A program made the position numbers. A stretch of DNA of 64,000 bases from Escherichia coli (GTDB taxonomy: Bacteria > Pseudomonadota > Gammaproteobacteria > Enterobacterales > Enterobacteriaceae). The stretch lies in assembly GCF_045037415.1 (NCBI RefSeq), contig NZ_CP173438.1; one strand, written 5' to 3'. Each line of letters opens with the position of its first letter. Position 1 is the first letter of the stretch. This document shows positions 27,001 through 30,000 of this stretch, piece after piece.

Positions 27001-30000
27001 GGTTTCGCACACCATTAAAAGCATTAAGCCGGAAGTCGAATTTGGCGTTAGCCCGGCAGGCGTGTGGCGTAACCGATCACACGATCCGCTCGGTTCCGAT
27101 ACCCGAGGCGCGGCAGCCTATGACGAATCCTACGCTGATACCCGTCGATGGGTGGAACAAGGGTTGCTGGATTACATTGCTCCCCAAATTTACTGGCCAT
27201 TCTCACGGAGTGCCGCGCGTTATGACGTGTTGGCAAAATGGTGGGCGGATGTCGTTAAACCGACCAGGACCCGCCTGTATATCGGTATCGCCTTCTATAA
27301 AGTAGGAGAACCGTCAAAGATAGAGCCAGACTGGATGATTAACGGCGGCGTACCGGAACTGAAAAAGCAGCTCGATCTTAACGATGCTGTGCCGGAAATT
27401 AGCGGCACAATCTTGTTCCGTGAGGACTATCTGAATAAACCGCAGACTCAACAAGCGGTCAGCTATCTGCAAAGTCGTTGGGGCAGTTAAACTCCCATTC
27501 TTACTTTGTAACAAGCCGGTGCTTTACCCACTGGCTTGTTACCCTCTTGAACTATCCCACTAGCAATCATGCTTAAATACGTCAAATTAACCACGCAATT
27601 AACCACACTTAGTTAAACAGCCATAATCCCCCTAATAAAAATGTATGAATATGAAAAAACATACGATATTCGCTGTCACCGAAAAATAATTACGATGGGC
27701 TATACTCTTCTGAAGAACAGTAGCGTAGATTGAAACTGTCCTAAGTCGCTTATTTCTTTTCAGTATATCTTCATATTTCAGGAGAATATGGTGCAGTTAG
27801 CCAATCCCGCACGTTGTGTTTGGTTGATTTTGGCCTGCGGTTTAACCATAAAGGTCGACATTATTTTAAAGCCGCAAACGGCGAGGATATTGCCCTCTCA
27901 CTTTCCATCGGTGCCGCCATGTTTAATGGTCATCCTGACTATGAGCGCCTCATTCAAATAGCCGATGAAGCTCTGTATATCGCAAAAGACGAGGTAGAAA
28001 CCGTGTTGAACTCTGTAAAGCCAGTCTTTAGATGCGCCAGGATGCAGAGGTAATCATGAAGCTAACCGATGCGGATAATGCCGCCGATGGCATTTTTTTC
28101 CCCGCCCTTGAGCAAAATATGATGGGCGCGGTGTTAATTAACGAAAATGATGAAGTGATGTTTTTCAACCCCGCCGCAGAGAAGCTCTGGGGGTACAAAC
28201 GTGAAGAAGTCATTGGCAATAACATTGATATGCTGATTCCGCGGGATTTGCGTCCTGCGCATCCTCAATACATTCGTCACAACCGTGAAGGTGGTAAAGC
28301 GCGCGTCGAGGGGATGAGTCGGGAGCTGCAGCTGGAGAAAAAAGACGGCAGTAAAATCTGGACCCGTTTTGCGCTATCGAAAGTGAGCGCCGAGGGGAAA
28401 GTTTATTACCTGGCGCTGGTACGGGATGCCAGCGTAGAAATGGCGCAAAAAGAACAGACCCGACAATTGATTATTGCCGTTGACCATCTCGACCGACCGG
28501 TGATTGTCCTCGATCCGGAACGCCATATTGTGCAGTGCAATCGCGCATTTACCGAAATGTTTGGTTACTGCATTAACGAAGCCAGCGGTATGCAGCCCGA
28601 TACACTCCTGAACATTCCAGAATTCCCTGCTGATAACCGTATTCGTTTACAGCAGTTGCTATGGAAAACCGCCCGCGATCAGGACGAATTTCTGCTGTTG
28701 ACGCGCACCGGTGAAAAAATCTGGATTAAAGCCTCTATCAGCCCGGTTTATGACGTGCTCGCGCATCTGCAGAACCTGGTAATGACATTCTCGGATATCA
28801 CCGAAGAAAGGCAAATCCGCCAGCTTGAAGGCAATATTCTCGCCGCCATGTGCAGCAGCCCACCATTTCATGAAATGGGGGAAATCATTTGTCGTAATAT
28901 CGAATCTGTTCTCAACGAATCGCATGTTTCTCTGTTCGCGCTGCGCAACGGGATGCCGATACACTGGGCGTCATCTTCGCACGGTGCAGAAGTTCAAAAT
29001 GCGCAAAGCTGGTCAGCGACCATTCGTCAGCGCGATGGCGCGCCTGCGGGGATCCTGCAAATTAAAACCTCGTCAGGAGCAGAAACCAGCGCCTTTATCG
29101 AACGCGTGGCAGATATCAGCCAGCATATGGCCGCGCTGGCGCTGGAACAGGAAAAAAGCCGTCAGCATATTGAACAACTCATCCAATTTGATCCGATGAC
29201 CGGTCTGCCAAATCGCAATAACCTGCACAATTACCTCGATGACCTGGTCGACAAAGCCGTCTCTCCGGTGGTGTATCTCATCGGTGTTGACCATATTCAG
29301 GATGTGATTGATAGCCTTGGCTATGCGTGGGCCGATCAGGCATTGCTGGAAGTGGTCAATCGCTTTCGTGAAAAACTCAAACCGGATCAGTATCTCTGTC
29401 GTATTGAAGGTGCGTCTTTTGTCCTCGTGAGCCTGGAAAACGATGTCAGTAACATTACCCAGATCGCCGATGAGCTACGGAATGTGGTCAGCAAGCCGAT
29501 AATGATTGACGATAAACCATTCCCGCTCACCTTGAGCATTGGCATCAGCTACGACGTGGGTAAAAACCGCGATTACCTGCTCTCCACTGCTCACAATGCA
29601 ATGGATTTTATTCGCAAAAATGGCGGTAACGGCTGGCAGTTCTTCAGCCCGGCGATGAACGAAATGGTAAAAGAGCGTTTGGTTTTAGGCGCAGCGCTAA
29701 AAGAAGCGATTAGCAATAACCAACTTAAACTGGTTTATCAGCCGCAAATCTTCGCAGAAACGGGTGAACTGTACGGCATCGAAGCCCTTGCTCGCTGGTA
29801 CGATCCCCTGCATGGTCATGTGCCCCCTTCACGGTTTATTCCTCTCGCAGAAGAGATTGGTGAAATCGAAAATATTGGGCGCTGGGTCATCGCGGAAGCT
29901 TGCCGTCAGTTAGCAGAATGGCGTAGCCAGAATATTCATATCCCGGCGTTATCCGTTAACTTGTCTGCGCTGCACTTTCGCAGTAATCAGCTGCCTAATC

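Follow-up and report, generated by a model that had tools for sequence, protein, structure and literature searches.

Gene content of the locus

In Escherichia coli K-12 the stationary-phase operon dosCP encodes a globin-coupled cyclase, DosC, and a haem-PAS phosphodiesterase, DosP. The present analysis concerns the same locus in a 64,000-nucleotide stretch of another E. coli genome (contig NZ_CP173438.1, assembly GCF_045037415.1), referred to below as the window, in which an intact dosP is preceded by a mere remnant of dosC. The genes concerned have several names: dosC is also called dgcO or yddV, dosP is pdeO or dos, and the gene upstream of them, digH, is yddW. Over its whole length of 64 kb the window is 99.99% identical to strain SK1144, and the 1 kb around the spacer between digH and dosP is 100% identical to many genomes, among them AR_0058, which serves in a preprint as the representative of clade C1 of sequence type 131 (ST131).

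The digH gene occupies positions 26171-27490 on the plus strand as an intact open reading frame (ORF) of 439 aa, forms its own transcription unit and is annotated as digH in the SK1144 record. Directly past its stop codon lies an inverted repeat (27508-27542, plus strand) with 14-nt arms that are 93% complementary and a 7-nt loop; it is conserved in K-12 and is probably the digH terminator. The stop codon of digH (27488-27490) and the ATG of dosP (28056-28058) are separated by 565 bp (27491-28055), the distance given in an earlier note on this stretch, which was drawn from the sequence alone. The counterpart interval of K-12 MG1655 consists of a 363-bp intergenic region that includes the 13-codon yddY, then dosC, whose 1383 bp agree with the 1.4 kb quoted in that note, and then a spacer of 24 bp.

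The first part of the spacer (27491-27787, plus strand) is the retained intergenic region between digH and dosC, collinear with K-12 and almost invariant among remnant alleles, and is presumed to be the dosCP/yddY promoter region. In K-12, the region upstream of yddY displays PhoQP-dependent promoter activity (PMC11429745) and yddY itself is translated (PMC11429745; bioRxiv 10.1101/511675). A consensus promoter scan returned a single sigma-70-like site, at 27599-27627, and a terminator scan returned one terminator-like site, which lies inside dosP and is also found in K-12; neither count is above the shuffled expectation. Alignment of the presumed promoter region also revealed a 12-bp tandem duplication (AATTAACCACGC / AATTAACCACAC; 27585-27608, plus strand), which overlaps the sole sigma-70-like match. 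The 12-bp unit is present once in K-12, twice in the window and in most carriers of the remnant, and three times in strain A25.

The retained region is followed by the beginning of yddY (27780-27821, plus strand), where the Shine-Dalgarno (SD) sequence (AGGAG, 27780-27784), the start codon at 27788 and the first 11 codons match K-12 yddY (b4746), a small leader ORF of 13 aa. This point is the left edge of the first of two deletions, beyond which the yddY ORF now continues as a chimera of 57 aa (27788-27961). In the ST131-type allele, yddY codons 5-7 (VDL to ANP; 27800-27810) differ from the other carriers and K-12 by a cluster of three non-synonymous changes, one of which is also present in strain 2015C-4136CT1. 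These changes suggest that the constraint on yddY was lost after the deletion of its 3' end.

Extent and nature of the dosC remnant

The endpoints of the loss were defined by BLASTN alignment of window positions 27300-28300 with the K-12 MG1655 interval, which gave three collinear blocks. The first (27300-27821, 93.5% identity) extends from the 3' end of digH through the intergenic region to yddY codon 11. The second is an island of 47 bp (27822-27868, plus strand) that corresponds to dosC nt 642-688, which encode the middle-domain residues aa 215-229 of DosC, and matches K-12 at 45/47 positions (E = 1e-17). The third (27868-28290, 98.6% identity to K-12) covers dosC nt 1219-1383 and continues into the first part of dosP. 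The dosC 3' fragment within it (27868-28031, plus strand) encodes the final quarter of the GGDEF domain (aa 407-460) and was identified by BLASTN, TBLASTN and Pfam; the Prokaryotic Genome Annotation Pipeline (PGAP) records it at the same coordinates as a diguanylate cyclase domain-containing pseudogene, "frameshifted; incomplete; missing N-terminus." Only nt 642-688 and nt 1219-1383 survive of the 1383 bp of dosC.

Relative to K-12 the allele has suffered a 686-bp deletion, a 531-bp deletion, a 1-bp deletion and a W456C substitution. Deletion 1 (686 bp, junction 27821|27822) runs from yddY codon 12 through the ribosome-binding site (RBS) and start codon of dosC to dosC nt 641, so that the globin sensor domain is lost completely and the middle domain in part. 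Deletion 2 (531 bp, junction at 27868) removes 177 codons (230-406) in frame, so that F229 is fused to K407, and includes the GGDEF motif (K-12 aa 374-378) and most of the GGDEF domain. A single C lost at 27983/27984 places the last 15 dosC codons in another frame, in which W456C is due to a change from TGG to TGT at 28014-28016, and the original TAG is kept at 28029-28031. The earlier note had proposed a loss by deletion together with a small indel; both the loss and the indel were recovered in the K-12 alignment, but the large lesion is two deletions and not one.

A TBLASTN search with K-12 DosC recovered aa 215-229 (...FNHKGRHYF), aa 406-446 (...IALSLSIGAAMFNGHPDYERLIQIADEALYIAK) and, in a different frame, aa 446-460, and nothing else of DosC. 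The ...KASL-TAG ending lies at 28029-28031, exactly where the note had recognized a DosC C-terminus in an alternative frame. The note had described the remnant as the final GGDEF block joined to a short ...FNHKGRHYF segment, and both pieces are indeed present, but what remains of the former is the C-terminal quarter of the domain, from which the GGDEF motif itself is gone. In Pfam, the remnant covers positions 115-157 of the 161 in the GGDEF model and 37-54 of the 110 in the DosC_2nd model.

The alignment with K-12 dosCP shows that the segment is derived from dosC: its nucleotide homology lies at the syntenic site between digH and dosP and is collinear with K-12, as expected of a dosC pseudogene. 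A globin domain, a complete DosC_2nd domain, the GGDEF motif and an uninterrupted ORF with its own start and RBS, all features of a functional DosC, are absent. A full-length dosC elsewhere, which would have spoken against the note, did not come to light: TBLASTN found no second copy in the window, where the sole other match is a 33%-identical GGDEF paralogue at 334-1752, and the best genome-wide match to dosC in remnant-type genomes is the remnant, 15% of the gene. Judged by its sequence, dosC is here a non-functional remnant, and the locus cannot give rise to a diguanylate cyclase.

The junctions bear no insertion sequence (IS) remnants, mobile element or long repeats, including when they are compared with full-length alleles from outside K-12. 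Microhomology amounts to a 1-nt overlap at junction 2 and to an imperfect similarity of at most 3-4 nt at junction 1, so that both appear to be illegitimate deletions of the ordinary kind. An Rfam search of 26000-32000 gave zero matches at the gathering threshold.

Distribution and origin of the allele

The occurrence of the allele was determined by probe matching in a set of 5,426 complete E. coli genomes. A 131-bp probe that spans both junctions matched end to end in 1,049 of them, including CFT073 and SE15, and a junction-1 probe matched in 1,046, while dosC is present over 80% or more of its length in 4,294 genomes. The resulting prevalence of about 19% is an overestimate, as clinical sampling has favoured ST131 heavily. 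A probe for junction 2 did not discriminate, as BLAST joined pieces that lie 592 bp apart in full-length genes. CFT073, SE15 and ST131 belong to phylogroup B2.

The spacer was aligned across 11 carrier alleles, namely that of the window and those of ten strains isolated on several continents from humans, calves, pigs, one monkey and one rat (SK1144, VG38-53E1, 2022H048, R12, 2015C-4136CT1, ZLWT, A25, HM670, EC8 and CFT073). Both junctions and W456C are identical in all of them, and the allele therefore has a single origin. The 1-bp deletion at 27983/27984, by contrast, is present in the window and SK1144 and not in the nine other aligned carriers, and a 49-bp probe across this frameshift matched 550 genomes, including SE15 and O25:H4 strains. 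Comparison of the aligned sequences indicates that the frameshift was acquired later, within the ST131-type lineage of which the window is a member. Within the carriers, the synonymous divergence (dS) is about 0.01-0.02.

Two further strains deserve mention. GPEC1035 (NZ_CM142796.1), from a chicken, was considered as an ancestor with full-length dosC and rejected, as it is a recombination mosaic across the locus: it combines a full-length dosC and a digH-dosC segment that is just 95-97% identical to the window and resembles that of other groups, with a B2-like dosP (99.5% to the window) and a deletion of the ddp operon downstream. In CRE287 (NZ_CP166757.1, locus 3068-4296) an IS3-family element interrupts the dosC remnant and separates its GGDEF tail from the part nearer to digH. 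The dosP gene downstream of it is annotated as intact, and the insertion may sever this gene from its promoter or provide it with a new one.

Integrity of dosP

In the window, dosP (28056-30455, plus strand) is an intact gene for a phosphodiesterase of 799 aa with haem-PAS, PAS, degenerate GGDEF and EAL domains. Its SD sequence, GAGGT (28047-28051, plus strand), and the whole 24 bp before its ATG are identical to K-12, so the description of dosP in the earlier note, a full-length gene with a GAGGT SD sequence, is accurate. The protein has 98.9% identity to K-12 DosP, with nine substitutions, and its Pfam architecture is complete (PAS 24-124, PAS 142-253, GGDEF 378-525, EAL 547-781). The EAL motif is located at 576-578, and H, M and R are present at the positions of His77, Met95 and Arg97 (numbering of the 807-aa form), which we take, from the literature on EcDOS, to be the haem ligands. 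The substitution nearest to a haem ligand is E71Q (E79Q in the old numbering). It is shared with GPEC1035, in which dosC is full-length, and therefore is no response to the loss of dosC.

The gene is annotated as intact in 14 of the 17 carrier genomes sampled. The lesions in the others are a stop at codon 45 (2022H048), a frameshift (2015C-4136CT1) and a frameshift at nt 1312 (CFT073). Ten distinct carrier alleles of dosP contain 22 synonymous and 14 non-synonymous segregating sites, which gives a ratio of non-synonymous to synonymous polymorphism (pN/pS) of 0.18, and the corresponding pairwise divergence ratio (dN/dS) within the lineage is mostly 0.06-0.28, except for a single value of 0.57, for which one member of the pair is the nonsense allele; the estimates are based on few substitutions. 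This pattern argues that dosP has generally, though not absolutely, been under purifying selection since dosC was lost.

Earlier reports and the closest systems

The remnant is already annotated and has been published for ST131 as well as for CFT073 and for isolates of commensal and uropathogenic origin; it is a lineage-wide pseudogene and not a peculiarity of one strain. Spurbeck et al. (2012, mBio, PMC3484386) find dos and yddV in K-12 only, CFT073 having c1918 and c1919 instead. Cimdins et al. (2017, PMC5635171) cite Povolotsky and Hengge (2016) for the frequent absence of DosC from natural isolates and describe some isolates with DosP but without DosC. An ST131 preprint (bioRxiv 10.1101/2022.05.07.487787) states that YddV/DosC became a "novel short protein" in all ST131 reference isolates. 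The reports of Cimdins et al. and of the preprint concern the same allele as that of the window, without biological difference; the portions of these texts that were available do not give endpoints, the two-step structure or population counts. What is added here are the exact endpoints, the architecture of two deletions, the evidence for a single origin, the counts of 1,049 and 550 genomes, and the observation that dosP is mostly, though not in every case, retained after the loss of dosC. The "dosP" named in a paper on piperacillin/tazobactam is carried by a plasmid, on a transposable unit, and has no bearing on this locus.

The closest characterized system is dosCP of K-12, with which the window shares the location after digH, the upstream region, the yddY start, the last 165 bp of dosC, the 24-bp spacer with its SD sequence, and a dosP with all functional motifs. 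By contrast, the window is without 1,217 bp in two blocks (most of dosC together with its leader and the last part of yddY) plus one base, and with them it has lost the dosC start codon, the globin domain and the GGDEF motif, so that the cyclase half of the system is absent. The two loci also differ downstream, where K-12 has ddpX after dosP and the window has no ddp operon.

CFT073 shares both junctions and W456C with the window in its digH-dosP spacer, but differs in three respects. It does not have the 1-bp frameshift and keeps a 72-codon frame ending in ...KASL; its dosP, frameshifted at nt 1312, stops at codon 439 and has no EAL domain, whereas the dosP of the window is intact; and it retains yddA, yddB and pqqL, which are lost in the window. 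The position, listed residues and domain content of the two CFT073 genes suggest that c1919 is the remnant and c1918 the truncated dosP. A dosP that stops short of the EAL domain fits the description there of c1918 as PAS-containing without EAL, next to c1919 as a degenerate fragment (PMC3484386).

Orphan DosP and alternative explanations

Very probably, the spacer represents dosC and its leader, decayed in the ancestor of a large E. coli lineage that includes the B2 strains CFT073 and SE15 and the O25:H4/ST131-type genomes, and leaves dosP as a presumably active orphan. Two illegitimate deletions removed 686 bp and 531 bp and left the 47-bp island and the last 165 bp of the gene, and ST131-type genomes later lost one more base. 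The promoter region retained upstream of yddY would drive the transcription of dosP, with transcripts that cross leader and remnant, together about 270 nt, into the gene, and dosP would be translated from its own unchanged SD sequence. Due to the hairpin at 27508-27542 after the digH stop codon, the dosP transcript is unlikely to derive mainly from read-through of digH. The product would be an O2-activated phosphodiesterase of cyclic di-GMP (c-di-GMP), kept without its partner, the globin-coupled cyclase. Provided that dosP is expressed without dosC, gene content implies that oxygen-sensing control of c-di-GMP would be phosphodiesterase-only, with DosP acting as an O2-stimulated sink for c-di-GMP from other cyclases and without a paired local source.

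Several points weigh against this interpretation. The promoter scan of the region upstream of dosP is not above chance, and no expression data for dosP in B2 strains were found in the literature on uropathogenic E. coli (UPEC) and ST131. The disruptions of dosP in 3 of the 17 sampled carriers are independent, and orphan dosP is therefore dispensable in some backgrounds, while the selection estimates depend on few substitutions. With respect to the origin of the allele, the assignment of all 1,049 carriers to B2 is extrapolated from few reference strains, and an intermediate with a single deletion was not identified; junction 1 matched in 1,046 genomes and the double junction in 1,049.

These points are shared in part by the strongest alternative, to which we give a minor but real chance, that the whole dosCP unit is decaying: dosP would either be silent or be turning into a pseudogene, and would have an intact ORF only because too little time has passed since the loss of dosC. 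The three independent disruptions and the UPEC and ST131 literature, which yielded no expression data for dosP, are compatible with such decay, as is the extent of deletion 1, which, besides the stop codon of yddY and the RBS of dosC, took two-fifths of the transcript from its 5' end and could alter mRNA stability or translational coupling. Neighboring loci have decayed as well (the ddp operon, yddA-yddB-pqqL and higB). Against it, the allele is old enough to have diversified, as its dS values indicate, yet dosP is complete in 14 of 17 carriers at a pN/pS of 0.18. All catalytic and haem residues of DosP are kept, and the promoter region and the dosP SD sequence are nearly invariant among carriers.

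A second alternative, somewhat less probable still, goes beyond retention and sees an adaptive rewiring and not neutral decay, in which selection would keep orphan DosP as a free-standing O2-activated c-di-GMP sink in ST131 and most of its relatives, expressed from the yddY promoter that responds to PhoQP and to stationary phase. If it were true, these extraintestinal pathogens would be biased to low c-di-GMP in oxygenated niches. A chimeric peptide of 57 aa might in addition be made from the retained yddY start. The independent losses of dosP in CFT073 and others mean that any benefit of orphan DosP would be lineage-dependent.

It is improbable that the remnant instead encodes a new small protein, either the 57-aa YddY chimera (27788-27961) or, outside ST131, a 72-aa fusion of the middle domain with the GGDEF tail (c1919). 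The idea draws on the "novel short protein" wording in the ST131 preprint (bioRxiv 10.1101/2022.05.07.487787) and on two properties of the locus: the SD sequence and ATG of yddY, which is translated in K-12, are retained and now open the 57-aa ORF, and deletion 2 is in frame, so that the 72-codon frame ending in ...KASL is kept in non-ST131 carriers. However, the ST131 allele frameshifts the 72-codon frame, whose best start is a TTG without an obvious SD sequence, and the three clustered changes in yddY codons 5-7 of the same allele suggest no constraint. The remnant has been interrupted by IS3 in one carrier, the fragment is without every catalytic element of the GGDEF domain, and no phenotype of a c1919 deletion is listed in the accessible part of PMC3484386. 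Finally, an assembly or sequencing artefact, or a recent deletion private to this isolate, is rejected as vanishingly improbable, as the junctions recur unchanged in 1,049 genomes that were finished independently and stem from many hosts and countries, and the frameshift recurs in 550.

Other losses in the window

The region around dosCP has undergone further losses. Between dosP and osmC, the interval 30456-30644 is without the whole ddpXABCDF operon for a D-Ala-D-Ala dipeptidase and transporter, and the K-12 alignment places the scar of this deletion at 30535-30600 (about 6.15 kb missing relative to K-12). Between the two flanks, 62 bp are 80.6% identical to an internal part of ddpF; as in dosC, the pattern is one of two deletions with an island between them. 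The ddp junction is found in 1,116 of the 5,426 genomes and is thus a little commoner than the dosC remnant, and mosaics of the GPEC1035 type make up at least some of the approximately 67 genomes that have this junction and not that of dosC.

Upstream of digH, only the C-terminal part of pqqL, which encodes an M16 metallopeptidase, is left, directly after ydeM (21670-22587). Compared with CFT073, about 6.3 kb with yddA, yddB and most of pqqL has been deleted, with a junction near 21672-21677. As CFT073 keeps these three genes, their loss is narrower in distribution than the dosC remnant.

A gene for a toxin of the HigB/RelE family upstream of yddM (35056-35333) has lost one base near 35153, by comparison with the intact copy of CFT073, and is marked by PGAP as frameshifted in SK1144; the higA-like antitoxin gene yddM is apparently an orphan. 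Between pqqU and mnaT (59550-59773) there are only fragments of a gene for a GntR-family regulator, listed by PGAP in SK1144 as missing the N- and C-terminus. The window also contains a transposase gene of ISEc1 (ISAs1-like) at 52508-53644.

Implications for c-di-GMP control in E. coli

A large and clinically important fraction of E. coli, including ST131 and CFT073, is without the cyclase half of the DosC/DosP oxygen-sensing module. Models established in K-12 for the control of c-di-GMP by O2, for curli and poly-N-acetylglucosamine (PNAG), and for the complex of DosC and DosP with polynucleotide phosphorylase (PNPase) should therefore not be applied to the strains that carry the remnant. The absence of DosC from such strains is already recognized in the c-di-GMP literature, and the importance of the finding is otherwise small.

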